Made by a program: the position numbers and the translations under genes
Source: Minisyncoccota bacterium
Lineage (GTDB): Bacteria; Patescibacteriota; Minisyncoccia; Phycocordibacterales; CAIZLB01
DNA: 64,000 nucleotides
Assembly (NCBI GenBank): GCA_018062305.1
Contig: JAGOSK010000001.1
Location: forward strand, 19,005-83,004
Reading direction: 5' to 3'
In this document: positions 10,634 through 62,795 of the stretch, piece by piece
Position numbering within the stretch: position 1 is the stretch's first letter
How the letters are laid out: each line of letters opens with the position of its first letter
The notes under the pieces: generated by a model
The model's database searches: none
What the model was told of the DNA's origin: nothing
The model's input: only the letters and a program-made list of their open reading frames with translations

Positions 10634-10647
10634 TTTCACTAAATCGC

Positions 10648-11712: not shown

Positions 11713-11731
11713 AAATAAAAACTCTTACAAT

Positions 11732-11813
11732 AAAAAGCGTATGTATCCGGGATTCGATTCAGCAGAATCGGGTCGAGCCAATCATCTTTAGGCTCAATAT
11801 ACATACGCTTTTT
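11732..11813. terminator. Bidirectional terminator between the convergent tig and rsmE genes
   Basis: Perfect 12-bp arms AAGCGTATGTAT/ATACATACGCTT with flanking A/T runs. An inner CGATTC-AGCA-GAATCG hairpin sits in the loop. Confidence 0.5.
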
Positions 11814-11844
11814 ATGTACTCGATTTTAAATAATTTCATTCACT

Positions 11845-30802: not shown

Positions 30803-31918
30803 TTAGAATGGATTTTTACCTCCTCGAACTTCGAAATGCAAGTGAACACCTGATGACTGACCTGTATTACCCATCTTTCCGATTTGCTGACCCTTAGTTA
30901 CTGATTGACCTGCGGACACCGAAGTCTGACTCATGTGTCCATACAATGTTTGTGTACCGTTTGGATGTTTGATAACTACATAAGTACCGTATCCTCCACC
31001 CCAACCACCAGAACGACTGATAAGCACCTGACCAGAAGCGGCAGCGAGAATCGGTGTACCGTGCGATGCGGCGATATCAATTCCATTGTGACCATGGAGA
31101 CCTTGCGTTCGAGTACCTCCAATAACAGGTCTTGCAAAGTAACCAGTCGTGTCGGTACGTGATGATCCCGCACCTATATTTGCTGAACCTTTCTTATTTG
31201 TTTTTTTCTTCTTTTCATTATCCTCTGCTTTCTTATTCTCCGCAGCAAGCAATGCTCCATCAGCATCAGGAATCATGATTTCAGAGCCAACCTCAAGCTT
31301 CTCACCTTCTTCTAGGTTGTTAAATTGGGCTATTTCGCCTGCATCACCATTAAACTTCTTTGCCAGACTCTGTAATGTATCTCCTTTCTGCACGGCATAT
31401 TTGATACTCGAGATAGGGAGGATTACCAACACCTGATCAGGCTGTAGAGCAGTACCCTTTTTGAGATCGTTGGCCCAGAGGATAGTGTTTGGAGTTACTC
31501 CATACATCCGTGCAATCTGTTCTAGAGTGTCGTTTTTACGTACTGTATATAGACTAATACGGTCACCATTGCCGTGTATGTCTTTAGGGTATCCAACAAA
31601 AGAACCCTCAGAAACTGAACTATTCTCATTTGTAAAAGCTTTACCCTCTACGACGGAGGCGTTTGTCTTGAGCTCCTTAATTATCTCAATAGTTGAGGTT
31701 CCTTCTAGTGGGTTTGCTGTCGCTGTCAAAATAGGCATAGTCTGAAGGTTTTTAACCTGAATCTGTTGTATTTCTTGTAATTCGCCGACACTTGCATTAC
31801 GAAAAACCGAAGAAAGGATAGAAACAACATCCGCAGAGGAAGAGGAAGGGGCAAAAGCGACACCTAAAGTCGCCACAGCCAATAGACTAAAGTAAAAGGA
31901 AGAGGGGTTAATACGCAC
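30803..31918 (-). CDS. Secreted M23 family metallopeptidase with two LysM domains
   Basis: Signal peptide; LysM repeats (YTVRKNDTLEQIARMYGV, YAVQKGDTLQSLAKKF); M23 HxxxD and HLH motifs (GIDIAASHGTP...GVHLHFEV). Confidence 0.85.
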   Translation of the reverse strand: MRINPSSFYFSLLAVATLGVAFAPSSSSADVVSILSSVFRNASVGELQEIQQIQVKNLQTMPILTATANPLEGTSTIEIIKELKTNASVVEGKAFTNENSSVSEGSFVGYPKDIHGNGDRISLYTVRKNDTLEQIARMYGVTPNTILWANDLKKGTALQPDQVLVILPISSIKYAVQKGDTLQSLAKKFNGDAGEIAQFNNLEEGEKLEVGSEIMIPDADGALLAAENKKAEDNEKKKKTNKKGSANIGAGSSRTDTTGYFARPVIGGTRTQGLHGHNGIDIAASHGTPILAAASGQVLISRSGGWGGGYGTYVVIKHPNGTQTLYGHMSQTSVSAGQSVTKGQQIGKMGNTGQSSGVHLHFEVRGGKNPF

Positions 31919-37393: not shown

Positions 37394-39460
37394 ATGAGTA
37401 TATACATGACTGGAAGTTATTTTCACAAAAAAATAATTCTTATTGTTGCACTTGCGTCTTTTTTGATTGTTGGGTTTTTTCCATCAACCACACAAAGCGC
37501 CGTTACTGCGACAGACCTTTTAAAATTAACTAATCCTACTACAGCTGCCATCGGAGCTGTAAATATAGCCACGGATACATTCGGTAATGGTAAGGCTACA
37601 CAAAATGACCAAATTTACTGCCTTAAAACAACCGGAGTCACTGATGGTTATGTACCCGATATTAGTATCCCCGGCTGTGCTGCCTATGTTTCTTTTACTA
37701 TCCTCCAGGTCGCTTCTTGGGTACTTTGGGTAGCAGCCATTCTTTTCAACAAAACCCTTGGCTACACACTGAACATGGCAGGGTTCATAAAAGATATACC
37801 AATAGTCGCAGTTGGTTGGACAACCTTCAGAGATGTAACCAACTTGATGTTTGTCTTTATTATCCTCTATATTGCGATCAATACTATTATAGGAAACGAA
37901 GGTTATGGTATTAAAAAACTTCTTGGAAAAGTAATTGTAGGAGCGATGCTTATAAATTTCAGTTTGTTTTTTACCCAAATAGCGATTGATGCTTCAAATA
38001 TATTTGCATTACAGTTTTACAACAAAATAACAGTATCGGCTCAAGGTCAAAATATATCTTCAGGAAAAGATGGGAGTAACACCGACTGGGATGCGGGTAT
38101 TTCTGCGGCATTTGTAAATGCTATGGGTCTCCAACAGATCTATTTCTGGGGGAAGGGGGCACAGTCTTCTGGAACTGGAGAGGGTGCAGACTTGAACGAC
38201 GTAAATGGTTCGACCAAACTTGGCCTAAATCCAGGAAACATGATACTTGTAGGATTAGGAGGAACCGTACTTGTACTCATCACTGCATTTGTATTTTTTG
38301 CGGCAACATTTATGTTTTTTATGCGAACTATTACATTAATGTTTTTGATGATTTTATCACCAGTAGCATTTATGGGAAACATTCTCCCTGCTCTAGGAAA
38401 GCACACAGGAAAATGGTGGAGTAAACTCACAGATAATCTATTATTTGCTCCTACATACATGATGCTTTTGTATCTCGTAATGAGCATGCTCACCAGTGGT
38501 GCTTTCAAAGGAATAAACGGTAAGGGGAGTAATTTTGCAGATATGTTCGCAGGTGGTACAAGTTGGACTGGTGCAGTGATGACTTTCATTGTATTAGTTT
38601 CACTCATGTTTGGTTGTCTAATCATTGCGGTCTCGTTTGGTGCTAGTGGTGCAAAATGGGCTGAGAAATTTGCTAAAGACGGGTCACTTTCTTTTGGAAA
38701 GTGGGCTGGAGGGGGTATTGCAAGAGGTGGAGCTGGTCGGCTGGGAGACTTTGCATCAAGTAGTAAATATTTGGCGAATATTAGTGCGAGGAGCCCGAAC
38801 TCCTTTGTTGGTAGATCTGCTGCTGCACTTATGCAGAGGGGTGACAAGCTAAAAGATGTAAAGATTGCAGGTAAAAGCTTTAATGAACGAGTGAAAGAAA
38901 AGCAAAAAGATTATACAAAGAGAGGAAATCTAATTGAGAAGGCATTACTTGATGTTGGTGATGCACCAATAAACCCTGGGGCAGGTGCTTCTCTGGCAGC
39001 ACAAACAGCATATAACACAGAAAAGACTGCATATGACACAAGAGTGGCACAAGCAAAAACAGCTGCGGCAAAAGCAGAAAAAGACTATCTTGGAGGAAAA
39101 AGATTTTCATATGCGAGTACAGCAGCTATGAAAAAGGCAGCAAAAGCAGCACAGGGTACAGATAACAAAGAGGCTTTGGAAAACCTCATATCCAAAACAG
39201 GTAAGTGGTCTCAAGATGAACATAATAGAGCCAAGGATACAATCGAAAAAGATGAAGTTGATGCAAATGGTAATGTAATAACCCAGTCTTTGAATAATCA
39301 AATTAAGGAATTAAGACTCCAATCTAAAATACCTGGAGCAGACCTTGGAAGAATAAACCAACAATTATCTATTATAATGGGAGAAAAGAAGGAACTAGAA
39401 GTTATTATCAAGGGCCACCTTGATACAGTTGGTAAATTAAGTAACCTCGAATCAAAATAA
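37394..39460 (+). CDS. Polytopic membrane protein, VirB6/TrbL-like candidate, with a C-terminal Lys/Ala-rich coiled-coil tail
   Basis: At least six hydrophobic helices after a signal sequence, then a hydrophilic tail of about 270 aa. The position and topology match the VirB6 class. Confidence 0.5.
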   Translation: MSIYMTGSYFHKKIILIVALASFLIVGFFPSTTQSAVTATDLLKLTNPTTAAIGAVNIATDTFGNGKATQNDQIYCLKTTGVTDGYVPDISIPGCAAYVSFTILQVASWVLWVAAILFNKTLGYTLNMAGFIKDIPIVAVGWTTFRDVTNLMFVFIILYIAINTIIGNEGYGIKKLLGKVIVGAMLINFSLFFTQIAIDASNIFALQFYNKITVSAQGQNISSGKDGSNTDWDAGISAAFVNAMGLQQIYFWGKGAQSSGTGEGADLNDVNGSTKLGLNPGNMILVGLGGTVLVLITAFVFFAATFMFFMRTITLMFLMILSPVAFMGNILPALGKHTGKWWSKLTDNLLFAPTYMMLLYLVMSMLTSGAFKGINGKGSNFADMFAGGTSWTGAVMTFIVLVSLMFGCLIIAVSFGASGAKWAEKFAKDGSLSFGKWAGGGIARGGAGRLGDFASSSKYLANISARSPNSFVGRSAAALMQRGDKLKDVKIAGKSFNERVKEKQKDYTKRGNLIEKALLDVGDAPINPGAGASLAAQTAYNTEKTAYDTRVAQAKTAAAKAEKDYLGGKRFSYASTAAMKKAAKAAQGTDNKEALENLISKTGKWSQDEHNRAKDTIEKDEVDANGNVITQSLNNQIKELRLQSKIPGADLGRINQQLSIIMGEKKELEVIIKGHLDTVGKLSNLESK

Positions 39461-40628: not shown

Positions 40629-41096
40629 ATGCGTTATCAGGTACCACAATTTATTGAGGTAGAAGACAAAATATTCGGGCCTTTTACATTCAAACAATTC
40701 GTATACATGGCAGGAGGGGCTGGTATTTGTTTTATCGCCTACCGAGCAGTCCCACTTTTTTGGGCAATTCTCATTATGCTACCAGCCGGGGGTTTTGCTG
40801 CGGCATTGGCATTCTACAGACCGAACAATAGACCGTTTATCAACACCATAGAATCTGCGTTCAACTATCTCATTACCCAAAAACTCTATATATGGAGGAA
40901 AATAGATAAAAAAGTAGAACAAAAAAGCGCCGTAGAAATACTCGAGGCGGTCAAATCTTCTATCTCAGTTCCAAAACTCTCAGAAAGTAGACTCAAAGAT
41001 CTCGCATGGAGTCTCGACATCAACGAAACGGTGTATTCAAGACAATCCGGTAAACTTCAAGGGAGAACTGATGCGCAAAGTAAAAAGACATTTTAA
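40629..41096 (+). CDS. Small two-TM membrane protein, VirB3/PrgI-like candidate
   Basis: Two adjacent hydrophobic helices (FVYMAGGAGICFIAYRAVPLFWAILIMLPAGGFAAALAF). It sits upstream of the VirB4-like ATPase, as in Gram-positive T4SS loci. Confidence 0.4.
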   Translation: MRYQVPQFIEVEDKIFGPFTFKQFVYMAGGAGICFIAYRAVPLFWAILIMLPAGGFAAALAFYRPNNRPFINTIESAFNYLITQKLYIWRKIDKKVEQKSAVEILEAVKSSISVPKLSESRLKDLAWSLDINETVYSRQSGKLQGRTDAQSKKTF

Positions 41097-41157: not shown

Positions 41158-41808
41158 ATGGCTACAGAAGCAAACAATGCAAAACCAACACAGTCATTTG
41201 TTCCTATAAAAGAGATTCGCGATGGTATCATTGTGCTCAAAGATGGTTCACTTCGTTCTATTCTCCTTGCTTCTTCACTCAACTTTGCTCTCAAATCTTC
41301 TGAAGAACAACAATCAATTATTTTTCAATTTCAAAACTTTCTAAACTCAATTAACTTTTCCATTCAGATTTACACTCAGTCTCGAAGGCTCGATATACGC
41401 CCATACATAGCCCTCCTAGAGGAACGACTTAAGGAGCAGGTAGGGGATTTGATGAAAATGCAAACTCGAGAATATATAGAGTTTATCAAAAGTTTCACCG
41501 AGTCTACCAGTATTATGACCAAAAGCTTTTTTATAGTTGTTTCGTACTCTGCCCCAGCACTCGGAGGTACGACAGCTATAAAAAAGTCATTTTTTGGAGG
41601 GGGTGGTACAAAGAAAGAACAGGAAAAAACAACATTTGAAGAAAGTAGGAGTCAGCTCCAACAGCGAGTCGAGGTAGTGGAGCAAGGGCTCGTTCGATGT
41701 GGTATCCGTATTGCAAGCCTTGGAACAGAGGAGCTTATTGAATTGTTTTACAAAACATTCAATCCAGGGGATATAGAAAAGCCAATTCACTTAACGCAAA
41801 ATAAATAA
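41158..41808 (+). CDS. Hypothetical protein immediately upstream of the VirB4-like ATPase
   Basis: 216-aa ORF. Its stop lies 5 nt before the next start. Confidence 0.45.
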   Translation: MATEANNAKPTQSFVPIKEIRDGIIVLKDGSLRSILLASSLNFALKSSEEQQSIIFQFQNFLNSINFSIQIYTQSRRLDIRPYIALLEERLKEQVGDLMKMQTREYIEFIKSFTESTSIMTKSFFIVVSYSAPALGGTTAIKKSFFGGGGTKKEQEKTTFEESRSQLQQRVEVVEQGLVRCGIRIASLGTEELIELFYKTFNPGDIEKPIHLTQNK

Positions 41809-41813
41809 CATAT

Positions 41814-43742
41814 ATGGCATTCCTCGATTTTTTAAAACCTAAACAAACAAAGAGCAATCCTATTGCGTCAGTTCTTCCACAAGAAATCTACCAAAGTGGT
41901 GTATTGGAACTTCAAGACATCATCGCTCCATCTGCTCTAAAGGTTACACCGCGTGCTCTAAACCTCGGCGACAAGCTCGTGCGAACATTCTTTGTTATTT
42001 CATATCCTCGATTTCTTTCAGAGAGTTGGTTTGCTCCGGTTATCAACCTCGACAAGATTTTTGATATTTCTATTTTCATTCATCCTATCGACACAGCTTC
42101 AGTACTACGAACATTCCAGAAAAAAGTAGCTGAAGTACAAAGTCAGATACACATGAGAGAGGAGAAAGGGCTCGTGCGTGATCCAATGCTCGACACTGCC
42201 TACCAAGACCTCGAATCACTTCGAGACAATCTTCAGCAAGCTCAGGAAAAAATCTTTGATGTAGGGCTCTACATATCAATCTACGGAGACAGTGAGCAAG
42301 ACCTAGACAAAATCGAGTCAGAAGTGAAGTCTATTCTTGAATCAAGTCTCGTATACCTCAAGCCTGCTCTTTTCCAACAGGAACAAGGTTTCAAAAGTGT
42401 GCTTCCGATCGCTGACGACCAGCTCAACATTCACTCAAAACTTAATTCTGCGCCACTTTCGAGTGTGTTTCCATTTATTTCATTCGACCTTACTTCAGAC
42501 AAGGGTATTTTGTATGGTATCAACAGACACAACTCTTCACTTATCCTCTTTGATCGATTCTCACTTGAAAACTACAACTCTATTACTTTTGCTAAGTCTG
42601 GTTCTGGAAAATCATATACAACCAAGCTCGAAATCCTTCGATCTATGATGTTTGATACAGACGTGATAGTACTCGACCCTGAGCGAGAATATGAATATCT
42701 TGCTGAAGCTACAGGAGGACGATTCTTCAACATCTCTTTGAGTTCTGAGCACCACATCAACCCCTTTGACCTTCCTACTCCACGTGAAGACGAGGCAAGT
42801 GCCGACGTACTTCGATCAAACATTATCAACCTTGTAGGACTTTTCCGAATCATGCTTGGAGGACTTACACCTGAAGAAGATGCTATCGTAGACCGAGCTA
42901 TTACAGAAACATATGCCCTCAAAGATATCACTCCTGAGTCCAACTTTGCAGCGGTAGAACCACCACTTATGTCAGACTTCGAACTCGTACTCGCAGGTAT
43001 GGAAGGAGGGGAATCACTCGTACAACGACTCACAAAGTATACAAAGGGTACTTGGGCAGGATTTATCAACCGTCCTTCAAACGTAGACATCAACAAGAAG
43101 TTCGTGGTGTTCTCAATGCGAGACATGGAAGACGAACTCAAGCCAGTAGCGATGTATATCGTAATGCACTTCATTTGGAACCAGATTCGAAAAGAGCTCA
43201 AGCGACGACTTATGGTTATTGATGAGGCATGGTGGATGATGAAATCAGAAGATACCGCTTCTTTCCTCTATGGACTTGCAAAACGAGGACGAAAATACTA
43301 TCTAGGACTCGCTACAATCACTCAGGACGTGGAGGACTTCCTCAAGTCACCTTATGGACTACCTATTATTACAAACTCGTCTATTCAGCTTCTACTCAAG
43401 CAGTCGCCATCATCTATTGATATTGTGCAAAAGACTTTTAACCTTACCGACGAAGAAAAGTATCTACTCCTCGAGTCTGATGTGGGAGAGGGAATCTTCT
43501 TTGCTGGACTTAAACACGTTGCTATCAAGGTTATTTCTTCATATACAGAAGATCAAATCATCACATCTTCTCCATCACAGGTTTTGGATATGAAAAAGGC
43601 TAGAGCGGACCTCGCAACGAAAGGACTGGTAACAGAAGATCAGGTGAGTGGAAATATCAGCGCAAGTAATACATTTATGGATAATATGGAAGCTGAAGGA
43701 AAGAGAAACATAGCAGATATAAAAGCGGAGCAAAATCTGTAA
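41814..43742 (+). CDS. VirB4/TrbE/PrgJ-family type IV secretion ATPase
   Basis: Walker A FAKSGSGKSYT, the VirB4-typical Walker B LMVIDEAWWMM and the LGLATITQ motif. The N-terminal region resembles the Gram-positive VirB4 N-domain. Confidence 0.75.
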   Translation: MAFLDFLKPKQTKSNPIASVLPQEIYQSGVLELQDIIAPSALKVTPRALNLGDKLVRTFFVISYPRFLSESWFAPVINLDKIFDISIFIHPIDTASVLRTFQKKVAEVQSQIHMREEKGLVRDPMLDTAYQDLESLRDNLQQAQEKIFDVGLYISIYGDSEQDLDKIESEVKSILESSLVYLKPALFQQEQGFKSVLPIADDQLNIHSKLNSAPLSSVFPFISFDLTSDKGILYGINRHNSSLILFDRFSLENYNSITFAKSGSGKSYTTKLEILRSMMFDTDVIVLDPEREYEYLAEATGGRFFNISLSSEHHINPFDLPTPREDEASADVLRSNIINLVGLFRIMLGGLTPEEDAIVDRAITETYALKDITPESNFAAVEPPLMSDFELVLAGMEGGESLVQRLTKYTKGTWAGFINRPSNVDINKKFVVFSMRDMEDELKPVAMYIVMHFIWNQIRKELKRRLMVIDEAWWMMKSEDTASFLYGLAKRGRKYYLGLATITQDVEDFLKSPYGLPIITNSSIQLLLKQSPSSIDIVQKTFNLTDEEKYLLLESDVGEGIFFAGLKHVAIKVISSYTEDQIITSSPSQVLDMKKARADLATKGLVTEDQVSGNISASNTFMDNMEAEGKRNIADIKAEQNL

Positions 43743-43845: not shown

Positions 43846-44475
43846 GTGCATATGATAGTATTCGATCCAGATAGTCCTAGTAATTTACAATCAGATAACC
43901 TACGCACAGGCAGTAGGACTGGTTCTGCTTCAGGAGATATGCTTGCAGAGCAAGGCGATCAAGCTGAAAACGAGCTCGCGGGGCGAGGTGAACGTGGTGA
44001 ACAGTACAAACAACAAACTCGTCAGCAACGATTCATGACACAGAGAATGCGAGAGTTATCTGAAAAGGACACAACAAACGGAAACTCACAAGTTCGAAGA
44101 CCACGAAACGAGAGATTTAAAAACCAAAAGGAAGACCAGCCAACCAAATTTGGTAGATCAGATGTTGTGATCATGTCGGTTGTGGCACTTATGTTTGACG
44201 GAGTAGGGGGAATCATCAGTCTGCTTGATTTTATTATTCCTCCAACTGGTGAGTTTATAAACAGTGTCACCGTTTTTCCTTTAGCTACACTTACCTTGTA
44301 TACGATGTATAAACATCGGGGGGTTGAATTTAAAGATACAAAGGTACTTGTTCGATTTTGGGGAAGTCTATTGATCGGCTTTATACCTATAGTGGCAATA
44401 CTTCCTGAATATTTTTTAAATGTAATCTTGGTTTCAACAGTAATGAAAGCTGAGGAAAAGATAAAGAATTTATAA
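43846..44475 (+). CDS. Hypothetical membrane protein (charged N-terminus, three C-terminal TM helices)
   Basis: ORF with hydrophobic helices in the C-terminal half. Confidence 0.4.
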   Translation: MHMIVFDPDSPSNLQSDNLRTGSRTGSASGDMLAEQGDQAENELAGRGERGEQYKQQTRQQRFMTQRMRELSEKDTTNGNSQVRRPRNERFKNQKEDQPTKFGRSDVVIMSVVALMFDGVGGIISLLDFIIPPTGEFINSVTVFPLATLTLYTMYKHRGVEFKDTKVLVRFWGSLLIGFIPIVAILPEYFLNVILVSTVMKAEEKIKNL

Positions 44476-44509: not shown

Positions 44510-45694
44510 ATGAATAAGAATTTTACTGAATTAAACAAATCAAATATTAGAAAAGGTCATGCAGCCCAGGTTGGCATAGCTTTTGTTCTCATTATATTTT
44601 CTTTATCATTTTTTAATATTCACTCTGATACTCAAAAAGCGCAAGCTCAGGAAACGCCAAATTTCGGTAGTTCTAATTTTATGGAATCTAATCTAGCACA
44701 GACAACAGGTGAACCAGGCACAGGCGACCCAAGTATCCCATTTACATCAAAATTTCCTCAAATAAAAGAGCAATTAGTCGTTGAAGTTAGCCCTGAAATA
44801 CCGAAACCTGGCGACACTGTGACTATTTCAGCAGAACTGTATGGAGATATTGATTTAAATTCAACCCTCATATCATGGAAAAAAAATGGGGTTGTAGAAC
44901 TCAAAGGAATTGGTAAGAAAGAATTCAGTTTTGTAATGGATGCTACTGGAAAACTCACAACGATAGATTTTGAGGCAACTCCAACAAATGCGCCAGCTAT
45001 TACAAAAACCTGGAGCTTTGCACCCGTAGATGTAGACATACTCTGGCAAGCAAACACATACACACCACCTTTCTACAAAGGTAAGGCTCTTTTTACACCC
45101 GAATCAAATGTCACTTTTATAGCCCTACCAAACATACTCATAGGAGGAAAGCGTGTGGACTCATCAGATGTAGTATACAAATGGAAAGTAGACAGAACTG
45201 TAGATGGAGCAAACTCTGGTTTTGGAAAAAGTTCGTATGACTTTACTGGCTCTATTATTCTAAAGCCGACTCTCATACAAGCTGAGGTCTATGCCGCGGC
45301 AAACAGTGCCTACAAAGGTATAAATGGATTTCAAATTTCCCATGTGTTTCCACAAGCACTTGTTTATGAAGATAGTCCACTATATGGCATCTTATTCAAT
45401 AAAGCTCTTCGTAATCAATATACTATCAAGAGTGATGAGGTTGAATTGTCAGTAATTCCATATTTCTTTAGTACAGAAGGAAAAAACAGTGCGGTCACAT
45501 ACAAGTGGGACCTCAACACTTCATCACTCTCTCTACCAGAATTTCAAAATTCTGCAGTATTTCGAAGAAAGGACAACAAAAAAGGTTCTGCAAATGTGTC
45601 TATCACAATCGGCAATCCTTCAAAAATATTGCAAAAATCAAGCGCTGTCTTGGGTTTAATTTTCAATGAAAAGAATAGTGGTTTTGGGCAGTAG
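44510..45694 (+). CDS. Hypothetical secreted protein
   Basis: N-terminal signal/anchor (VGIAFVLIIFSLSFF) followed by a beta-rich domain. Confidence 0.5.
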   Translation: MNKNFTELNKSNIRKGHAAQVGIAFVLIIFSLSFFNIHSDTQKAQAQETPNFGSSNFMESNLAQTTGEPGTGDPSIPFTSKFPQIKEQLVVEVSPEIPKPGDTVTISAELYGDIDLNSTLISWKKNGVVELKGIGKKEFSFVMDATGKLTTIDFEATPTNAPAITKTWSFAPVDVDILWQANTYTPPFYKGKALFTPESNVTFIALPNILIGGKRVDSSDVVYKWKVDRTVDGANSGFGKSSYDFTGSIILKPTLIQAEVYAAANSAYKGINGFQISHVFPQALVYEDSPLYGILFNKALRNQYTIKSDEVELSVIPYFFSTEGKNSAVTYKWDLNTSSLSLPEFQNSAVFRRKDNKKGSANVSITIGNPSKILQKSSAVLGLIFNEKNSGFGQ

Positions 45695-45787: not shown

Positions 45788-47152
45788 GTGAAGCACAAAC
45801 TAATCCATAAAATAGCTTATATATTTTTTATATTGGTTTGCTTTTTAAATTCATTCCTGACTGTTTTTGCAGCAGGGGCTTATTCCGATCTTGAAGCAGG
45901 GACATATACAGCAACTATCGAAAACTTTGCAAACAGCGGAAAAACGCAAACCTTCCAGATGGTTCTTATTCCTGATATAAACGGATATCTATATTTAGAT
46001 CGTGAAAAAACCAACATTCCAATCAAAGACTATTCGGGGGATAAGGATTACTTACCCGACGAACTTACCTATAAAAACGCAAACGGAAAAGAGGTTACAT
46101 TTGATCTCAGATCCACATCAAGAATCGATAATACGAGTGGGGCTATAAAAGTTGATGGTAAAGGAAATCTCACTTCACCAACAATTACTCAGACCGAAAC
46201 AAAACCAGTGGTGACTCTCGGAGCCACCACCCCTCCCCCAAACTCAAACGCTGGCTCATACACATTCCTTGCACCACTACCGTTCTTTGGGGGTCCATCA
46301 ATAAATATTGCAGAGGGAGGACTTGCTGGGTATTTAGATGGATTGTACAAAGCCGGTATTGCTGTAGCTACCGGGTTAGCACTCATTATGATTGTTGCAG
46401 GAGGTCTTGAGTATGCATCAGCTGGTTCTGTAGGAGGGAAAGATGGGGGAAAGAGTAAGATTAAAAATGCACTCATTGGATTACTACTTGCTTTGACTTC
46501 ATTCATCATATTGCAACAGATTAATCCTGGTCTCATTCGAAATGATTTGGCAGTAGATGCCACCAAGGCAGTAGGGGGTATTACCGGGCAGACGGTGGAT
46601 TTGGTTGATTATACCAACACAACATTAGGAAATCTGTATACACAGGGTATAATTGATGGATCGTTAGGAAACAATCCTGGGTCATTTCCAGGAAGTGGCG
46701 TCTTATCTACATCTGCGGTCGCGGCACGAATAGTGCAATCTGCTAGAGCAAATCTAAATGAATCAACTTGTTTCCCTGTTACAGAATACGGAAGAAGAGG
46801 CTGTGGCTATGCTTTTGGAAAGATAATGAGCGACGCTGGTGTTAATTTTACTAACCTAAACTCAAGTTCGGTCTTATCTACATCAAACATATATAGTGTT
46901 TTAGCAACCGACCAAAGGTTTACACTTGTTTCTATAAACGATACACGAAACGCCCTTCCGGGAGATATTATTATTTCACCAACAACATCTGTGGCAACTG
47001 GTCACGTAGGAATTATTGAACAAGCTGGTGCTGGAAAAATAATATCAAACAGTAGTAATGCTGGTTCAATTCAAGATTATTTTACTGGTCAAAAATGGTT
47101 AAATTATTACGGAGGAAAAGGATTAAAAACTTATATTTTTAGATATCGATAA
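45788..47152 (+). CDS. Secreted protein with a VirB2/pilin-like double-helix segment and a C-terminal CHAP/NlpC-P60-like hydrolase domain
   Basis: Signal peptide. Central segment AGIAVATGLALIMIVAGGLEYASAG...ALIGLLLALTSFIILQQ, two hydrophobic helices split by a charged loop. C-terminus has Cys in RRGCGYAF and His in TGHVGII. Confidence 0.5.
   Translation: MKHKLIHKIAYIFFILVCFLNSFLTVFAAGAYSDLEAGTYTATIENFANSGKTQTFQMVLIPDINGYLYLDREKTNIPIKDYSGDKDYLPDELTYKNANGKEVTFDLRSTSRIDNTSGAIKVDGKGNLTSPTITQTETKPVVTLGATTPPPNSNAGSYTFLAPLPFFGGPSINIAEGGLAGYLDGLYKAGIAVATGLALIMIVAGGLEYASAGSVGGKDGGKSKIKNALIGLLLALTSFIILQQINPGLIRNDLAVDATKAVGGITGQTVDLVDYTNTTLGNLYTQGIIDGSLGNNPGSFPGSGVLSTSAVAARIVQSARANLNESTCFPVTEYGRRGCGYAFGKIMSDAGVNFTNLNSSSVLSTSNIYSVLATDQRFTLVSINDTRNALPGDIIISPTTSVATGHVGIIEQAGAGKIISNSSNAGSIQDYFTGQKWLNYYGGKGLKTYIFRYR
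46225..46607. repeat. 383-bp segment 100% identical to 47720..48102 (copy 1)
   Basis: Compared base by base. It encodes the pilin-like segment in both genes. Confidence 0.9.
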
Positions 47153-47174: not shown

Positions 47175-48617
47175 ATGTATATACGAAATCTACTTTTAGT
47201 TTTTATACTAGTATTTAATTTTTTATTGCCTTCTTTTACGTATTCTGCAGTAGCAGTAGGAAATCTGGTTAAATTGCAAAGTGCGAACGAGGTGTCTGAG
47301 GTTTCTATTGAAAAAAGCTACTACACCCCCGGGGCAGACCAGAGCAAAGCTACAAACTTCCAATTTATATATCAAAAGACTGCAGCTGATAACTATCAAC
47401 TTTCACAGGTCTTCGTACAAGATAGTAAGACTGGAGCGTTTGTAGACTCGACGTCTAAGTTCACAGAACAAATTCAGCGACAACCTCAATTTGAAGTTGT
47501 ATCAAAACAGGATATGTATCAGTACAAAATAGGTGCTCGAGATTTTCAGGAGGAAATTGCCCAAAAACAACTAAACACAACAGCATCTGTTAATAGTAAT
47601 ACAAACCCCGAGTTAGGTTTTAGGGATGGAACGAACCCAGATGATATTTTTAGAACCACAATGAATAATCTTCCGGGTAATACAGTAGGAAACCCTGTAG
47701 CAGTAGTACCTTCAACAAGCACCACCCCTCCCCCAAACTCAAACGCTGGCTCATACACATTCCTTGCACCACTACCGTTCTTTGGGGGTCCATCAATAAA
47801 TATTGCAGAGGGAGGACTTGCTGGGTATTTAGATGGATTGTACAAAGCCGGTATTGCTGTAGCTACCGGGTTAGCACTCATTATGATTGTTGCAGGAGGT
47901 CTTGAGTATGCATCAGCTGGTTCTGTAGGAGGGAAAGATGGGGGAAAGAGTAAGATTAAAAATGCACTCATTGGATTACTACTTGCTTTGACTTCATTCA
48001 TCATATTGCAACAGATTAATCCTGGTCTCATTCGAAATGATTTGGCAGTAGATGCCACCAAGGCAGTAGGGGGTATTACCGGGCAGACGGTGGATTTGGT
48101 TGCTGGAGGGGGTACAATAAATCAAATAATCCCTCCGGGACAACCAGGTAGTTATGTCTTAGCAAACAATGAAAACCCTTCAACAGGAACAGTTTTTAGT
48201 AATTATTCAAGTTTAAAACAATTATTAAATAGCCTTCCAAGTGGACCGAGATCTACAGATGGAAGTCTTATTTTTACAAATTATTGGAACGGAGATACAA
48301 ATACAAATCAACAGCGAGGAAACAACTGCAACCTTTTGGTATCTGGCTCAGTAGCACTCTCACCAGACCTTATATCTAGATATAATCCAAAAAAAGGGGC
48401 AGCAGTATATGTAAATGGTTTATTGGTTGGCTACTTTGACGACACAACAGGTGCAACAACACTGGGATATGTTGGAGGAACTCTTATTAGAAATACTATA
48501 GATATATATGATCCCAACCGAACTCTTGGATCAGTTCTTAAAAAAATGCCTCCAAATAGTTGGTATTTAGTATTTGGAACACAAAGAGCTCAAACACCAA
48601 ACCCTTGTCCTCGATAA
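47175..48617 (+). CDS. Secreted protein with the same VirB2/pilin-like segment and unrelated N- and C-terminal domains
   Basis: Signal peptide and the identical 127-aa cassette. The C-terminal domain is of unknown function. Confidence 0.5.
   Translation: MYIRNLLLVFILVFNFLLPSFTYSAVAVGNLVKLQSANEVSEVSIEKSYYTPGADQSKATNFQFIYQKTAADNYQLSQVFVQDSKTGAFVDSTSKFTEQIQRQPQFEVVSKQDMYQYKIGARDFQEEIAQKQLNTTASVNSNTNPELGFRDGTNPDDIFRTTMNNLPGNTVGNPVAVVPSTSTTPPPNSNAGSYTFLAPLPFFGGPSINIAEGGLAGYLDGLYKAGIAVATGLALIMIVAGGLEYASAGSVGGKDGGKSKIKNALIGLLLALTSFIILQQINPGLIRNDLAVDATKAVGGITGQTVDLVAGGGTINQIIPPGQPGSYVLANNENPSTGTVFSNYSSLKQLLNSLPSGPRSTDGSLIFTNYWNGDTNTNQQRGNNCNLLVSGSVALSPDLISRYNPKKGAAVYVNGLLVGYFDDTTGATTLGYVGGTLIRNTIDIYDPNRTLGSVLKKMPPNSWYLVFGTQRAQTPNPCPR
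47720..48102. repeat. 383-bp segment 100% identical to 46225..46607 (copy 2)
   Basis: Compared base by base. Confidence 0.9.
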
Positions 48618-48722: not shown

Positions 48723-50180
48723 ATGATATCGAGAAGAACTTCTTTTATAATAATTATTGTAGTTTTAAGTTTGCTTGTGGGTGGGCTCATTGGTTTCTAT
48801 TTTTATACAAAGAATAAAAATCCCGGATCAACTATTTTAGGTAATCGAATAGGGGGGAGAACTAATTTTGGAGGATATGACCCGGACAATCAAACTGCGA
48901 CATCGAGTACAAATACCAATACGAGCACCACAACACCTATCACTAACGACATTGTGCCAGTCAATACAAAAGTTCCGAAGCTTCGTAAAATAAGTGACGT
49001 TCCTACTGCTGGTGTAGATTTTGTCACGATACCCATATATGAAGACACAAATAAGAATGTCGAACCAGCTGACCTTTCTGTTTCAAAAACAAAAGTTCCA
49101 GTAAAAAAACCGCTTAAATTTATTGGAAACAAAACGGTAGTTCGATATATAGAAAGAGCGACAGGACATATCTATGAAACAGCAACTAGCTCACTCGAAA
49201 AAGTTAGAATTTCCAATACAACGGAACCAAAAATATATGAAGCTTATTTTACCAATAGAGGAGATAACCTTATTTTAAGGGGTCTCATTGGTAGTTCGGA
49301 TATTATCAGTACACGATATGCATCACTAGTGCTCGCATCCACAACTGATACAGAGAGTGAATTTTCTAAAATATTAACAACCAAAGATCTGCCAATCCAG
49401 ATTTCACAGGTTGCCATTTCACCTAGTAAAACTCAGCTATTTTCGATTTCACCATCAGGAGTCAGAGGAATATTATCAAAAATTGATGGCGGTTCTACTG
49501 TTGGTATCTTTGATACACCATACAGAGAATGGATTCCATCATGGCCAGAAGAAAAAAACATTGTTCTCACCACTAGAGCATCTGGATTTGCGCCTGGTTT
49601 TGCATATATATTAAATACACCAACAAGACAAATCACTCGAATCCTCGGAAATATCTATGGACTAACAACTCTCACTTCACCAGATCTATCAAAAGTACTA
49701 TTTAGTTCAAGTGAACGAGGTACTTTTACTCTCAATTATTTAAATAGAAAAGACTCATCTATCTCAAACCTCTCATTTAAAACTCTTCCTGAAAAATGTA
49801 TCTGGTCTAAAAAAGATAGGAATGTTCTGTTTTGTGCTGTTCCAGAAAACATCGCATTTAGTACATATCCTGATGTTTGGTACCAGGGTCTTATAAACTT
49901 CTCAGACTCTATTTGGAGAATAGATATAAACACAGGTGAAACAAGACTTATTATGAACATCCAGAACGAATCTGGTGAAGTTATAGACGCTACAAACCTT
50001 TATGTGAGTGCCGGTGACGACTATCTCGTCTTTACAAACAAAGTAGACCTCACACTTTGGGGACTACAACTCGTTCCACCCGTCGAAGACACCACCGCCA
50101 ACCCACTAGATACTATCAACTCAATAAATAAAGCCTCAACAACATCTTCTTCGACAGCCCCAACAACACCTACAAACTAG
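48723..50180 (+). CDS. Hypothetical N-terminally anchored protein with a probable beta-propeller-like ectodomain
   Basis: N-terminal TM helix (FIIIIVVLSLLVGGLIGFYFY), a Thr/Ser-rich linker, then a long beta-rich domain. Confidence 0.45.
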   Translation: MISRRTSFIIIIVVLSLLVGGLIGFYFYTKNKNPGSTILGNRIGGRTNFGGYDPDNQTATSSTNTNTSTTTPITNDIVPVNTKVPKLRKISDVPTAGVDFVTIPIYEDTNKNVEPADLSVSKTKVPVKKPLKFIGNKTVVRYIERATGHIYETATSSLEKVRISNTTEPKIYEAYFTNRGDNLILRGLIGSSDIISTRYASLVLASTTDTESEFSKILTTKDLPIQISQVAISPSKTQLFSISPSGVRGILSKIDGGSTVGIFDTPYREWIPSWPEEKNIVLTTRASGFAPGFAYILNTPTRQITRILGNIYGLTTLTSPDLSKVLFSSSERGTFTLNYLNRKDSSISNLSFKTLPEKCIWSKKDRNVLFCAVPENIAFSTYPDVWYQGLINFSDSIWRIDINTGETRLIMNIQNESGEVIDATNLYVSAGDDYLVFTNKVDLTLWGLQLVPPVEDTTANPLDTINSINKASTTSSSTAPTTPTN

Positions 50181-54729: not shown

Positions 54730-57210
54730 CTAATTTATAGTAAAAATACTTTGAGCCTCAAGGAATTTACCTAAACGCTCTGTTGCTATAGCTTTAATTT
54801 CATTTTCTGGTTCGATGTTTGATATTGAAGAGGGTATAAAAGAGAAACTATAAGGAGATTCTGTTGATTTACCTATTATTTTTCCATTTATATAATATTC
54901 AACTTGTGTTGTTTGATCTCCAAAGCCACTAACTTGTATTGTTACTCGAGCATCTTTACTGAAACTACTTCCGTTTATTGGAGAATTTATATTAAACCCT
55001 GCAATACCATTTGTTGTGCTTGATGAAATAGGATTCAGTACAAAAGAATTTTGACTGAGTGACCAATTTGTAACACCTATTTCAAATAAACTAAACAAAG
55101 AATCTCGTGAACCATACCCAGGTGCAGCACCTTGTATATCATTTTTATTAAGCCAATACAATTCAGAGTGAATTTCATTTTGAGGACCTCTCCATACACC
55201 CGCGAGAAATGGCTTTGTACTACTTGAGATAGGTTCAGGTTCTTCAAAGACTTCATCAGGTACTTTTGTAAGTACATAATCCATGAATTCCTTCCACATA
55301 GGACCAATAATACGAGCAGAAGCTTGTTGAACCATTGGTGTATTGTTGTTGTTACCCATCCATGAACCCACAGATATGCTTGGTGTATAACCTAAAACCC
55401 ACGCATCACGAGAGCTGTTTGTTGTACCTGATTTTATGGCAACCTGTCTTTCTCCAAAATATCTAGATCCGAAAATAGATGCTCGAGCATATGGGTCAGA
55501 AAGGATATCGTTCATAAGTAATGCACTCTGTCTTGGAATAACTTGTATAGTTGAGGTTGAAAATTCTTCCACTACTACCTGATCGTTTGTTTCAATTTTG
55601 AGAATAGGGGTTGTTTTAGCTTTTTCACCACCGTTTGCAAATACTCCATATGCGCTGGTCATATCGAGTACAGAAACCTCACCACCTCCAAGAGCGAGTG
55701 AGAGACCGTATTGAGATGCGGATGCTAGGTTTTGTATCCCCATAGCTTCTGCTGTTTTGATCGCGTCGTTTACACCTACTATGTGGAGTGTTCGCACGGC
55801 AGGGACGTTTCTAGACTCTGCTAGTGCTGTTCTGATACTCATTAAACCTTTAAATCCACCCTCATAGTTTTGAGGATTGTAACAATCAGCTCCAGATGAA
55901 ATGGGAATATTTTGTGCATTACACGAAGCATTAAACTGAGTAGGAACATCATATACTGGTGTACTTGGTGTCATACCTTTATTGAATCCTGTGGCGTAGA
56001 CAAAGGGTTTAAAAGCAGATCCTGGTTGTCGGCGTGCTATAGCTACATTAAAATTACCCTCTATTTCCTTATCAAAATAATCTCGTGAACCAACCATAAC
56101 AAGTATTTGCCCAGTTCTAGGGTCAGTTGCTACAAGTGAACCATTTGATGCTTTGAATTTACTTTCGTTCGTTTTAACATATCGGCTGACGATTTCCTCA
56201 GCTTTTTGCTGTAAGGTCCAATCTAAACTTGTTATGATTTTGAAACCTCCTTTTTCAAGCATTTCAACCCCGTATTTTTGCTCCAAATACTCTTTAACAA
56301 ACATTACAAAGTGAGGGGCTTTTATACCACCTACAGTTTTTGGTTGGAATACCACCTCCTCTTTGAGAGCGTTTGTGTATTGTTCTTCTGTAATAAAGTT
56401 ATTTTCATACATTTTTTTAAGAACAAGATTTTTTCGTTCTACTAGTAGATTTTTATTTTGACCATATGGGGAATATAAAGAAGGTGCCTGTGGAAGGGCG
56501 GCTATATATGCTGACTCAGCAAGAGTAAGATCGCTGGCTTTTTTATTAAAATAAGCTTGCGTAGCCTCTTCAACACCATAAATGTTACCACCATATGGTG
56601 TTTCATTAAGATATAAATTGAGAATAGTATCTTTGTCCGTTGTTCTTTCGAGTTTTATAGCCAACACCCACTCTTTCATTTTTCTAGAAATATCCTTGTT
56701 TTTAGTAAGAAGTGAGTTTTTTACTACCTGCTGAGTTATAGTTGATCCACCTTGGCTGTATTCGAGAGCAAAAATATTTGCAAGTACTGCTCTTAATATG
56801 GATGTAGCCTTTATTCCACCATGATTGTAGAAGTCTATATCTTCAATAGCTATAGTTGCTTGTTTGATATATGGAGAAATTGAGTTAAAAGGAACCACTG
56901 TCCTTCGAACTTTTTGACTTAGGTCATATAAAAGTACTTCTCCAGTACGATCATAAATTTTTGCAGATTGACCAAGTAGTCGGTCGTCAAAAGTACTCAA
57001 ATCAGGAGTTCTAAGACTAGAAGCCCAAAGGAGGAAGACTGTCGCTGATAATACACCAAGGATGAGTAAGACGAGGATAATATCCCGTACTAGGTAGCTT
57101 ATTTTTTTAGGGCCGTGACCTTTTTTATAGAAAAGCCGCTGAAATCTCCATTGAATAATTGATATAACTCGGTCAACCATGCTTATTATGGCTTTTATTG
57201 TTTTTTTCAT
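54730..57210 (-). CDS. Class A penicillin-binding protein (PBP1A; transglycosylase and transpeptidase)
   Basis: GT51 motifs EDIDFYNHGGI and GGSTITQQVVKN. Transpeptidase SxxK, SxN and KTGT-like (KSGTT) motifs. N-terminal TM anchor. Confidence 0.9.
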   Translation of the reverse strand: MKKTIKAIISMVDRVISIIQWRFQRLFYKKGHGPKKISYLVRDIILVLLILGVLSATVFLLWASSLRTPDLSTFDDRLLGQSAKIYDRTGEVLLYDLSQKVRRTVVPFNSISPYIKQATIAIEDIDFYNHGGIKATSILRAVLANIFALEYSQGGSTITQQVVKNSLLTKNKDISRKMKEWVLAIKLERTTDKDTILNLYLNETPYGGNIYGVEEATQAYFNKKASDLTLAESAYIAALPQAPSLYSPYGQNKNLLVERKNLVLKKMYENNFITEEQYTNALKEEVVFQPKTVGGIKAPHFVMFVKEYLEQKYGVEMLEKGGFKIITSLDWTLQQKAEEIVSRYVKTNESKFKASNGSLVATDPRTGQILVMVGSRDYFDKEIEGNFNVAIARRQPGSAFKPFVYATGFNKGMTPSTPVYDVPTQFNASCNAQNIPISSGADCYNPQNYEGGFKGLMSIRTALAESRNVPAVRTLHIVGVNDAIKTAEAMGIQNLASASQYGLSLALGGGEVSVLDMTSAYGVFANGGEKAKTTPILKIETNDQVVVEEFSTSTIQVIPRQSALLMNDILSDPYARASIFGSRYFGERQVAIKSGTTNSSRDAWVLGYTPSISVGSWMGNNNNTPMVQQASARIIGPMWKEFMDYVLTKVPDEVFEEPEPISSSTKPFLAGVWRGPQNEIHSELYWLNKNDIQGAAPGYGSRDSLFSLFEIGVTNWSLSQNSFVLNPISSSTTNGIAGFNINSPINGSSFSKDARVTIQVSGFGDQTTQVEYYINGKIIGKSTESPYSFSFIPSSISNIEPENEIKAIATERLGKFLEAQSIFTIN

Positions 57211-60986: not shown

Positions 60987-62795
60987 TTACACTGATTTTG
61001 TGTCAAAAGTTTCACTTGAAAAAGTGTCGGTTGTGTCTAAGGGAATGTCTGTGTTGGATGTTATTTCAGGTTGAATATTAGAATTTATTTCAGGCTTAAT
61101 AGCTATGAGCTCCTCTGCCATATCTACCACTCTTTCAAGTTCGTCAAAAGATGTTACACCTTTGAGTATTTTTATAAGACCATCTTGTTTCATGTTGAGA
61201 ATTTTCTGAGGAAGAGCTGCTGTTTTGATTTCTCGTTCAGATGGGTTTTCTCGAACGATGTTTTCAATATTTTTATCCGCAAGGATAGCTTCATATACAC
61301 CGATTCGTCCTTTGTATCCTGTCTTGTTACAAAGATCACACCCAACAGCTTCATATACTTCATTTGGAATGGTAGGGAATTCTGCCATTTCCTCATATCC
61401 AACAATAGAGGCAAAGAGCTCGTCGATATATGGTTGTTTTTCTTTTGAAATAGGTACTTTCTTTTTACATTCTTTACAAAGAGTACGAATAAGTCGCTGT
61501 GCCATAGCTACTCGAATAGATGAGGTGAGTACTTTTGGATCGACACCAAGGTCTACAAGACGAGTGAATGTACCTGCGGCGTTGTTGGTGTGCAGTGTTG
61601 AGAATACAAGGTGACCAGTAAGGGCCGCTTGAATAGCAGTGGTAGCAGTTTCTCCGTCTCGAATTTCTCCAACCATAATAATGTCAGGGTCTTGTCGAAG
61701 AGCTGCTCGAAGTCCTGATTCAAATGTATAGCCCTTCTTTTCTTCTACTTGTGTTTGAACTACTCCCTCAAGGTGGTATTCAATAGGATCTTCGATTGTG
61801 ATAATCTTCATTTCAGGACTCTGAGTTTTTCGAAGAAACGAATAGAGGGTTGTTGTTTTACCAGAACCAGTTGGACCTGTTGTGAGAATGAGTCCGTTTG
61901 GTCGAGCGATTTCAGTCATGAGAATCTTGAGAAGGCGAGGTGGAAAGCCGAGATCTTCGATAGGAACAGAAATGCTTTTTGGATTCAAAATACGCATTAC
62001 AACCGCTTCTCCATATGAGCCAGGTACTGTTGAAGTACGAATTTCAATGTCGTTCATATAAATTTTTACAGTAAAACGTCCGTCCTGGGCAGATTCTTTT
62101 AGGTTGAGTTTTAGACCAGAGAGAAGCTTAAGTCGAGAAAGCATAAGTCTGAATGTTTCAATATCAAATTTTACAACCTCAACAAGTACACCATCGAGTC
62201 GATATCGAAGTCGTGCGTATTCTGCTTCAGGCTCAATGTGAATATCGGAAGACTTTGTCGCAAGTCCTCCGGCCATGATAATAGCCATCAATCGAGAAAC
62301 TTTATGACTCTTTTTAATAGTAAGAGCTTCGTTTATAAGAACTGAAATATCAGGGAGCTTTTTTGCTTTATCAATAAGGGTTTCAATTTCTTCATTTGAA
62401 ATATCAAGGGACCCTGCTTCTGTTTCAAAGGCGAAAGAAAGATCTTTGTATCGATCCCATGCTTTCTCAATACTGTGCATTGAAGCCATATATATAATTG
62501 TTTCATAGCCTTTTGCTTGAAGAGCTCGAATTGATGCAATAGTATTTTGATCTTGAGGAGAGTGTATAGCAATAGAAATCCTCTTTCCTAGAATATCAAA
62601 CACTGCAACTTTGTTTTGTCTCGCTTCAGCTTCGACAATCAGTCGAAGTCCATCAGTATTAATAGGCACCCGAGTGAGGTCAATATATGAAAGACCATAT
62701 TTTTCAGAAAGCATTTGCACAGCTTTTTCCTCTTCGTCGCTGAGAAGAGTTTTTATTCGCTGATTTTGTTTGTCTTCGTCAAAGTGTATGGTCAT
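60987..62795 (-). CDS. Second GspE/PilB-family secretion/pilus ATPase with a tetracysteine motif
   Basis: Walker A TGPTGSGKTTTLY, Walker B DPDIIMVGEIRD, His box, and CKEC...CDLC. Confidence 0.85.
   Translation of the reverse strand: MTIHFDEDKQNQRIKTLLSDEEEKAVQMLSEKYGLSYIDLTRVPINTDGLRLIVEAEARQNKVAVFDILGKRISIAIHSPQDQNTIASIRALQAKGYETIIYMASMHSIEKAWDRYKDLSFAFETEAGSLDISNEEIETLIDKAKKLPDISVLINEALTIKKSHKVSRLMAIIMAGGLATKSSDIHIEPEAEYARLRYRLDGVLVEVVKFDIETFRLMLSRLKLLSGLKLNLKESAQDGRFTVKIYMNDIEIRTSTVPGSYGEAVVMRILNPKSISVPIEDLGFPPRLLKILMTEIARPNGLILTTGPTGSGKTTTLYSFLRKTQSPEMKIITIEDPIEYHLEGVVQTQVEEKKGYTFESGLRAALRQDPDIIMVGEIRDGETATTAIQAALTGHLVFSTLHTNNAAGTFTRLVDLGVDPKVLTSSIRVAMAQRLIRTLCKECKKKVPISKEKQPYIDELFASIVGYEEMAEFPTIPNEVYEAVGCDLCNKTGYKGRIGVYEAILADKNIENIVRENPSEREIKTAALPQKILNMKQDGLIKILKGVTSFDELERVVDMAEELIAIKPEINSNIQPEITSNTDIPLDTTDTFSSETFDTKSV

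Follow-up and report, generated by a model that had tools for sequence, protein, structure and literature searches.

Bacteria of the Candidate Phyla Radiation (CPR), or Patescibacteria, account for much of bacterial diversity and spend their lives attached to host cells. What these organisms' type IV secretion system (T4SS) does is an open question (PMC10633639, PMC12857230), and in a Saccharibacterium, the only cultivated system to have been examined genetically, the genes for the T4SS and its pilins are essential to epibiotic growth (PMC10633639). Most CPR genomes having VirB2 were found without a recognisable VirB1, and the 2025 survey reporting this concluded that pilus biogenesis may not need one (PMC12102498). 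Here, we analyzed a 64,000-nucleotide stretch of the genome of an ultra-small Minisyncoccota bacterium (contig JAGOSK010000001.1; hereafter the window), in which an open reading frame of a T4SS locus, ORF1, joins a VirB2-type hairpin and a domain of the NlpC/P60-CHAP-Amidase_5 superfamily in one polypeptide, as an initial annotation of the sequence had proposed. We consider it probable that ORF1 is a subunit of the CPR T4SS, with a cysteine peptidoglycan amidase or endopeptidase tethered to its pilin-type hairpin, and that it provides wall opening of the VirB1/PrgK type.

The described proteins closest to this function are PrgK (pCF10), TraG (pIP501), TcpG, and CwlT. As is predicted for ORF1, they are membrane-tethered, extracytoplasmic peptidoglycan hydrolases encoded within a T4SS operon, they carry a cysteine peptidase of the CHAP/NlpC-P60 type, and their presumed job is local wall opening (PMC12102498). 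They are held by a single N-terminal transmembrane anchor and usually have an extra SLT/lysozyme domain, whereas ORF1 has a pilin hairpin, which follows a cleavable signal peptide and an N-terminal domain (N-domain), and one hydrolase domain, which forms a distinct family within the superfamily. Pfam, AlphaFold2 (AF2), and a hydrophobicity scan revealed no glycosidase domain in ORF1. By analogy, ORF1 would work like these VirB1-like hydrolases, but it fails their architecture.

On the pilin side, VirB2, TrbC, and PF18895 proteins, including the essential array of 'Ca. Southlakia epibionticum', share with ORF1 a signal peptide and two hydrophobic helices with a basic loop. CPR pilin arrays are encoded near virB4 of the CPR T4SS as tandem paralogues, as are ORF1 and its neighbor ORF2. 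Classical pilins are small and undecorated, whereas ORF1 adds about 115 aa on the N-terminal side and about 200 aa on the C-terminal side. Published CPR arrays are highly divergent (mean 25%, at most 54% identity; PMC12102498), whereas the cores of ORF1 and ORF2 are 100% identical and only their flanks differ. No description of a pilin::hydrolase fusion was found in the searchable literature, including two recent papers on T4SSs and CPR, among them the survey of CPR systems (PMC12102498), the Cell paper on S. epibionticum, and the single further paper that cites PF18895. The pattern of an identical core with variable flanks is likewise not captured by the published description of CPR arrays (PMC12102498).

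For the C-terminal domain (C-domain) of ORF1, the nearest relative in both sequence and fold is Lys2972 of Streptococcus phage 2972 (8tw1), with which it has the Cys, the His, and a W..YY segment in common. Lys2972 is about 25% identical. It is a soluble lysin of two domains, one of them for cell-wall binding, and has neither a membrane hairpin nor a T4SS context. Tse1/Tae1 of Pseudomonas aeruginosa has a similarly compact NlpC/P60-superfamily fold (TM-score about 0.5–0.56, probability 1.0) and is a wall-cutting enzyme that a contact-dependent secretion apparatus delivers. However, its identity to the C-domain is 14–17%, and Tse1 is a free effector of the type VI secretion system (T6SS) with a cognate immunity protein; no immunity gene was recognised here.

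The layout of ORF1 proved to be largely as initially annotated, with a signal peptide, a hairpin, and a C-terminal hydrolase-like domain; the strands of the beta-rich N-domain were drawn by AF2 only at low confidence (aa ~30–145, predicted local distance difference test score (pLDDT) 30–59). Searches of the N-domain against Pfam and PHROG gave no match. The hydrophobic core of the signal peptide spans aa 9–27 in the hydrophobicity scan and is followed by a putative cleavage site between VFA and AG. A linker of ~60 aa leads from the hairpin to the C-domain, and pLDDT was <50 across aa 241–308 of the full-length AF2 model. This model was poor overall (pLDDT 51.5) and was left out of the fold searches for the N-domain and pilin.

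Sequence comparisons of the C-domain started from a low score. Against Pfam CHAP (PF05257), whole ORF1 scored 17.4 bits (E=0.0064) and the isolated C-domain 19.8 bits (E=0.0011), both below the gathering cutoff of 26, and whole ORF1 as a single-sequence search of the PDB returned noise only. Because ORF1 alone barely touches CHAP, the C-domain family was built stepwise, from six close homologues to a profile (A2) and then to a 137-sequence alignment (A3). In 1.84 billion proteins searched, profile A2 picked out 1100 cluster representatives (E<=0.001). When the members of A3 were scanned singly at E<=0.01, 83 of the 137 matched CHAP, 37 matched NLPC_P60 (PF00877), and 14 matched Amidase_5 (PF05382), with a best E of 4e-7. 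The assignment in the initial annotation is supported at the level of the superfamily, and the single domain from the window stays below the gathering score. Against the PDB, a 7-sequence profile gave marginal NlpC/P60 matches (E about 0.4), and the A3 profile matched the endolysin Lys2972 at E=3.8e-10, in an alignment spanning Cys and His. The A3 profile also matched Tse1 at E about 0.3–0.5. The single window C-domain matched PHROG 998 (endolysin) at E=4.4e-6.

In the A3 profile alignment with Lys2972, Cys339 corresponds to the DCSG Cys and His406 to the GHVG His, within the aligned motifs ACAwaVN/DCSGAIS and GHVGI/GHVGV, and a common W..YY segment follows. The aligned Lys2972 residues are C34 and H101 by chain count; the CHAP dyad of its Amidase_5 domain is C35 and H101 in the published numbering (PMC10980517). 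The Cys of RRGCGYAF and the His of GHVGIIE, which had been picked out by eye as catalytic, are these two residues, although the spacing between them is 67 aa and not the 85 aa or so first given. Asn421 aligns with an Asp of Lys2972. Across the 137 sequences of A3, His406 is invariant, and Cys339, Ser420, Asn421, Ser423, and Trp437 are each at least 90% conserved. By these sequence comparisons, the likeness of the C-domain to peptidoglycan hydrolases is well beyond chance. It rose above no single Pfam family threshold, and consequently we classed it as a family in its own right within the NlpC/P60-CHAP-Amidase_5 superfamily, one that keeps its putative catalytic residues and is nearest to the phage Amidase_5 lysins.

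An AF2 model of the C-domain, with A3 as the alignment, reached a pLDDT of 91.5 and a predicted template modeling score (pTM) of 0.86. In this model, Cys44 (Cys339) opens the helix at 43–54, His111 (His406) opens the strand at 111–115, and Asn421 lies on the strand after that of His406. The predicted arrangement of Cys on a helix and His on a strand is the papain-like layout. Foldseek searches of the PDB returned the CHAP endolysin Ly7917, Tse1/Tae1, NlpC/P60 endopeptidases, and the CHAP domain of LysGH15, with TM-scores of 0.45–0.56 and probabilities near 1. Among the viral models of BFVD, the best matches included a cyanophage lysin, the phage 2972 lysin (TM-score 0.63, 25% identity, E=1.5e-6), and many CHAP proteins. 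The prediction and fold matches agree with the CHAP/NlpC-P60 pattern that the initial annotation had read from the sequence.

The hairpin of ORF1 was assigned to the pilins through its homologues. AF2 placed helices at aa 179–210 and 217–245, and the hydrophobic segments lie at aa 189–207 and 227–245, joined by the Lys-rich loop SAGSVGGKDGGKSK. The T4SS_pilin and VirB2/TrbC pilins have this order too, their signal peptide preceding two hydrophobic helices that a short basic loop joins. Residues 191–242 matched Pfam T4SS_pilin (PF18895) at E=0.02 and 15.4 bits, against a gathering score of 26.6, and ORF1 matched the NCBIfam model Mbov_0395 (a Mycoplasma 'pilin-like conjugal transfer protein' from an integrative and conjugative element) at a sub-threshold E=0.013. 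Homologues found with the window pilin core (E down to 1e-47) passed the PF18895 gathering score: P0026 (38.5 bits), P0016 (31.4), P0024 and P0025 (27.9), and P0018 (27.2). Some also showed weak matches to TrbC/VirB2 (PF04956). By transitive sequence homology, ORF1 is placed in the T4SS_pilin family. A search of all six frames of the window with a pilin-core profile found exactly two copies, in ORF1 and ORF2. If the positive-inside rule holds, the Lys-rich loop is cytoplasmic, and the N-domain and C-domain would therefore both lie outside the membrane.

The fusion recurs, and with it the enzyme changes. P0002 (64% identity, 99% coverage), P0003–5, P0007, and P0009 are full-length orthologues of ORF1, and a pilin core stood upstream of the hydrolase domain in 43 of the 148 cluster representatives that carried the domain. 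The other bearers were secreted or lipoprotein-like stand-alone proteins, proteins with an SLT domain plus the hydrolase domain, and giants. In the giant proteins P0104 (5786 aa) and P0137 (6670 aa), the hydrolase domain lies near the end. In P0084, P0091, and P0122, an SLT-like motif (...QIESG...FGPFQI...) precedes it, giving the two-enzyme layout of the PrgK/TraG type.

Homologues of the core had other hydrolases in the same position: SLT in P0010 and P0012, SLT_2 in P0021 and P0024, canonical NlpC_P60 in P0023, and M23 in P0028 (Campbellbacteria). The fusion genes lie at 10001–11926 in locus L008 (NlpC_P60, P0023), 10001–11848 in L010 (Peptidase_M23, P0028), and 676–2229 in L011 (SLT, P0010). 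In L008 and L010, the gene is downstream of PrgI, a TraC-like gene, and VirB4, and in L010 and L011 it adjoins yidC-rnpA-dnaA. Since different hydrolases occur on one core, what is conserved is the joining of a pilin core to one peptidoglycan hydrolase or another, the enzyme having undergone non-orthologous replacement. We rest the case for a functional coupling of wall cutting to the pilin chiefly on this replacement on a conserved core. The claim of a new architecture therefore needs qualification. It stands in that the searchable literature holds no description, but the fusion is no one-off, being syntenic in metagenome-assembled genomes (MAGs), present in the representatives counted above, and paralleled by SLT, M23, and NlpC_P60 fusions.

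The neighboring gene was also more than had been supposed. The initial annotation took ORF2 to keep only the pilin module, whereas both ends of ORF2 carry domains different from those of ORF1, an N-domain and a conserved C-domain. The family of this C-domain comprises 56 proteins, and T4SS_pilin is present in 21 of 54. Neither the ORF2 C-domain nor its 54 relatives matched Pfam, and the family profile had no match in the PDB. Its motif GSVALSPD...DDTT...NTIDIYD has, by eye only, a likeness to 3D/DPBB (MltA/YuiC-like) lytic transglycosylases, which we do not claim as an assignment. Were such a fold present, the two paralogues would between them recreate the pairing of glycosidase and peptidase known from PrgK and TraG.

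Over 383 nt, ORF1 (46225–46607) and ORF2 (47720–48102) are the same at every position (100% identity). This block corresponds exactly to the pilin core, and similarity ends abruptly on both sides. Paralogues within other genomes had comparably matched cores: 401 nt at 100% in L005, 244 nt at 99.6% in L003, and 389 nt at 94.3% in L004, and P0002 and P0011, on one 193-kb contig, share 139 identical core residues. Between genomes, the pilin core has only about 51–64% protein identity. Protein identity between the window and L005 was 91% for VirB4, 72% for PrgI, 50% for the hydrolase domain, and 44% for the N-domain. L005 has the ORF1-type N-domain on its second pilin gene instead (10513–10950, 44% identity), and P0011 combines an ORF2-type N-domain with a third kind of C-domain. 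In a 1786-nt contig, P0006, the N-half of P0002 is followed by the C-half of P0011, the outcome of either recombination or chimeric assembly across the repeat.

These comparisons suggest that the core evolves in concert, by gene conversion, with cassettes shuffled at its borders. A homogenized core with shuffled flanks is what would be expected if the paralogues must co-assemble via the common core; alternatively, the core identity may reflect neutral homogenization of a tandem repeat. In the public short-read NCBI assembly (P0001 and P0008, KBB54_ locus tags), both pilin genes are annotated as partial and are broken exactly at the repeat, covering ORF1 aa 1–273 and ORF2 aa 183–480. Roughly 1.1 kb between the repeats, including the hydrolase domain, may be absent from that MAG. 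Because the NCBI assembly breaks exactly at this point and independent MAGs share the structure, we regard the 383-nt repeat as genuine.

ORF1 and ORF2 belong to an operon in the order PrgI, TrsD, VirB4, two unknowns, pilin::hydrolase, pilin::X, and one unknown, with yidC, rnpA, dnaA, and dnaN downstream (Table 1). In a comparison of related loci seeded with the 7-sequence alignment (7 loci), the complete order was kept in the MAG loci L004 and L005 and its tail end in L003. A T4SS setting with virB4 was present in L004, L005, L008, and L010. For o485, which ends the operon, identity to the L005 counterpart is 52%. Upstream, the polytopic membrane protein at 37394–39460 had no Pfam match and is a candidate VirB6 equivalent. 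The function of VirB4 is split, since the TrsD/TraC-like gene stops 5 nt before the ATPase gene; the split was also observed in L004, L005, L008, and L010, and in L010 the ATPase itself was called as two genes.

This T4SS is a chromosomal, oriC-adjacent system of the CPR/Patescibacteria, as surveyed previously (PMC12102498), and not a classical Gram-positive conjugation locus; the initial annotation had drawn its comparison with Gram-positive T4SS loci. Partial matches at 100% identity were labelled 'Candidatus Pacebacteria'. The window ORFs that were scanned yielded neither a coupling protein nor a relaxase. An origin from a mobile element or conjugative plasmid was considered and rejected, given the surrounding housekeeping and oriC genes together with the lack of a coupling protein or relaxase among those ORFs.

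Table 1. Coordinates of ORF1, its parts, its paralogue, and the other genes of the T4SS locus (positions in the window).
Feature	Position	Strand	Basis or remark
ORF1, pilin::hydrolase fusion	45788..47152	+	454 aa, GTG start, stop codon included
ORF1 signal peptide, aa 1–29	45788..45874	+	Hydrophobicity scan; cleavage between VFA and AG judged by eye
ORF1 N-terminal, putatively extracellular domain, beta-rich, aa 30–145	45875..46222	+	AF2 strands, low pLDDT
ORF1 pilin core, aa 146–274, two-helix VirB2/T4SS_pilin-like hairpin	46225..46607	+	First copy of the 383-nt block
ORF1 Gly/Thr-rich linker, aa ~246–308, predicted disordered	46523..46711	+	AF2 pLDDT
ORF1 C-terminal NlpC/P60-CHAP-Amidase_5-superfamily domain, aa ~306–454	46703..47149	+	
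Codon of Cys339, putative nucleophile at helix N-terminus	46802..46804	+	Conservation, Lys2972 alignment, AF2
Codon of His406, putative general base at beta-strand start	47003..47005	+	Conservation, Lys2972 alignment, AF2
Codon of Asn421, candidate third polar triad residue (inferred)	47048..47050	+	Conservation, Lys2972 alignment, AF2
ORF2, paralogous decorated pilin with own N-domain and C-domain and identical core	47175..48617	+	480 aa
Second copy of the 383-nt pilin-core block, ORF2 aa 182–310	47720..48102	+	
ORF2 C-domain, aa 312–480, conserved family, often fused to T4SS_pilin	48108..48614	+	
Polytopic membrane protein, VirB6 candidate	37394..39460	+	688 aa, 8 hydrophobic segments; synteny L004, L005
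PrgI/VirB3-like protein	40629..41096	+	Pfam PF12666, E=1.2e-9
TrsD/TraC-like protein, N-terminal part of VirB4	41158..41808	+	216 aa; NF041427, NF045975
VirB4-like ATPase (CD1110 family)	41814..43742	+	642 aa; NCBIfam NF045971, E=2.5e-109; Pfam P-loop_TraG
o209, no known family	43846..44475	+	2 hydrophobic segments; synteny L003, L004, L005
o394, no known family	44510..45694	+	N-terminal hydrophobic segment; synteny L003, L004, L005
o485, last operon gene, no known family	48723..50180	+	N-terminal hydrophobic segment; synteny

In the mechanism that we favor, the signal peptide would direct export of ORF1, and the hairpin would insert with its Lys-rich loop towards the cytoplasm, placing the N-domain and the C-terminal enzyme outside the membrane. 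The VirB4 machinery would treat the hairpin like a pilin, and the tethered enzyme would cleave peptidoglycan, in its peptide stems or its cross-links, at the very place of pilus or channel construction. The wall-opening function, elsewhere that of a separate VirB1 or PrgK protein, would in this way be supplied in cis, and the wall-penetrating organelle envisaged in the initial annotation would be formed with ORF1 as a part. Fusion of the hydrolase to the pilin would also explain the scarcity of VirB1 in VirB2-bearing CPR genomes (PMC12102498). A wall of the cell's own, as indicated by the class A penicillin-binding protein encoded in the window, likewise speaks in favor.

Several observations weigh against this mechanism. 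The hydrolase domain is not specific to the T4SS, as about 70% of its bearers are without the pilin core. The window protein itself is below the gathering scores of both T4SS_pilin (15.4 vs. 26.6 bits) and CHAP (17.4 to 19.8 vs. 26 bits), and its hairpin was modeled at a pLDDT of only 50–60. A pilin of 454 aa with two globular domains may be too bulky for polymerization of the VirB2 type. Furthermore, a host-facing role would account for the rapid divergence and the shuffling of the outer domains no less well than housekeeping in assembly.

That last point leads to the most serious competitor, to which we give roughly half the weight of the favored mechanism. Here, decorated pilins would polymerize via their identical cores, and the pilus would display the hydrolase and the ORF2 C-domain and attack the wall of the host, with the purpose of gaining access to the host membrane. 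The two explanations overlap and are not exclusive, since they differ only in the target, the cell's own wall or that of the host. The resemblance of the fold to the T6SS antibacterial amidase Tse1/Tae1 points towards a host target, as do the weak sequence matches to it and the presence of the same domain in secreted stand-alone proteins and in the giants. The outer domains have also diverged much faster than the machinery (VirB4 91%, C-domain 50%, and N-domain 44% identical between the window and L005) and have been shuffled between pilin genes, and each genome keeps its cores identical, as co-polymerizing subunits would lead one to expect. The T4SS and pilins are, in addition, essential for epibiotic growth in the cultivated Saccharibacterium (PMC10633639). 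Yet no immunity gene was identified beside the fusion, gene conversion in a tandem repeat can occur without selection for co-assembly, and both polymerization of the pilin and contact with the host are presumed. An extension of this idea, which we put forward tentatively, sees the pilus of the CPR T4SS as a filament both modular and decorated, in which a polymerization core homogenized by conversion would carry adhesin-like N-cassettes and wall-degrading C-cassettes, swapped by recombination at its borders, and a changing set of enzymes would drill through the host wall.

It is less likely, in our judgment, that the hairpin has lost its pilin function and merely holds a housekeeping autolysin for growth or division, the position in the T4SS operon being historical. 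Gram-positive T4SS hydrolases and many autolysins are simply membrane-anchored, ORF1 is far larger than any characterized VirB2, and no small, plain pilin was found in the window, all of which would fit such an anchor. However, the position downstream of VirB4 is kept across distant CPR lineages, with different hydrolases on the same core, and the sharp-edged homogenization of the core between paralogues would be unexpected for an arbitrary anchor. The window also encodes other wall enzymes, e.g., the M23+LysM protein at 30803–31918. A degenerate papain-like C-domain that binds peptidoglycan or the host surface without cleaving appears improbable. The C-domain is below the threshold for every curated family, and its Cys context (GCGYAF/ACAYAV) is unlike the DCSG and QC motifs of characterized enzymes, but the His is invariant and the Cys, Ser-Asn, and Trp are conserved at 90% or more in 137 diverse sequences, at what the alignment and model indicate to be canonical catalytic positions. 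Finally, we rejected as very improbable that the fusion or the tandem duplicate arose by mis-assembly of the MAG or by a frameshift. The partial NCBI versions of both genes, which break exactly at the repeat, and the chimeric appearance of P0006 across it could be read in this way; against it, full-length orthologues of the same architecture occur on independent contigs (P0002, P0003–5, P0007, and P0009), syntenic loci come from other studies, and collapse of the repeat would delete, not create, the region between the copies.

The fusion is genuine and conserved, can be put to the test, and matters for the question of what role the essential CPR T4SS plays. It may explain how a CPR secretion pilus crosses a cell wall. 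As an alternative to the conclusion that no hydrolase is needed (PMC12102498), the hydrolase would be built into the pilin, with its types (Amidase_5/CHAP-like, NlpC/P60, M23, and SLT) interchanging on the core. The identical core with variable flanks would, moreover, be a clear-cut example, from a surface organelle, of concerted evolution accompanied by cassette shuffling. If the pilus is indeed a decorated filament, the functions of VirB1 and VirB2 would be merged in it, and host range would be set by cassette shuffling.

Other features of the window were observed outside the T4SS operon. A tyrosine recombinase (Phage_integrase family, E=3e-40) is encoded at 25181–26242 (−), ~15 kb upstream of the operon. 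A class A penicillin-binding protein with a C-terminal Big_7 domain is encoded at 54730–57210 (−), and this gene together with the separate LysM+M23 peptidase mentioned above (also on the minus strand) indicates that the organism both makes and remodels peptidoglycan of its own. A PilC/T2SSF-like gene and two genes for PilB/T2SSE-like ATPases with MshEN domains, at 5344–6555 (−), 6666–8441 (−), and 60987–62795 (−), point to a type IV pilus system besides the T4SS.

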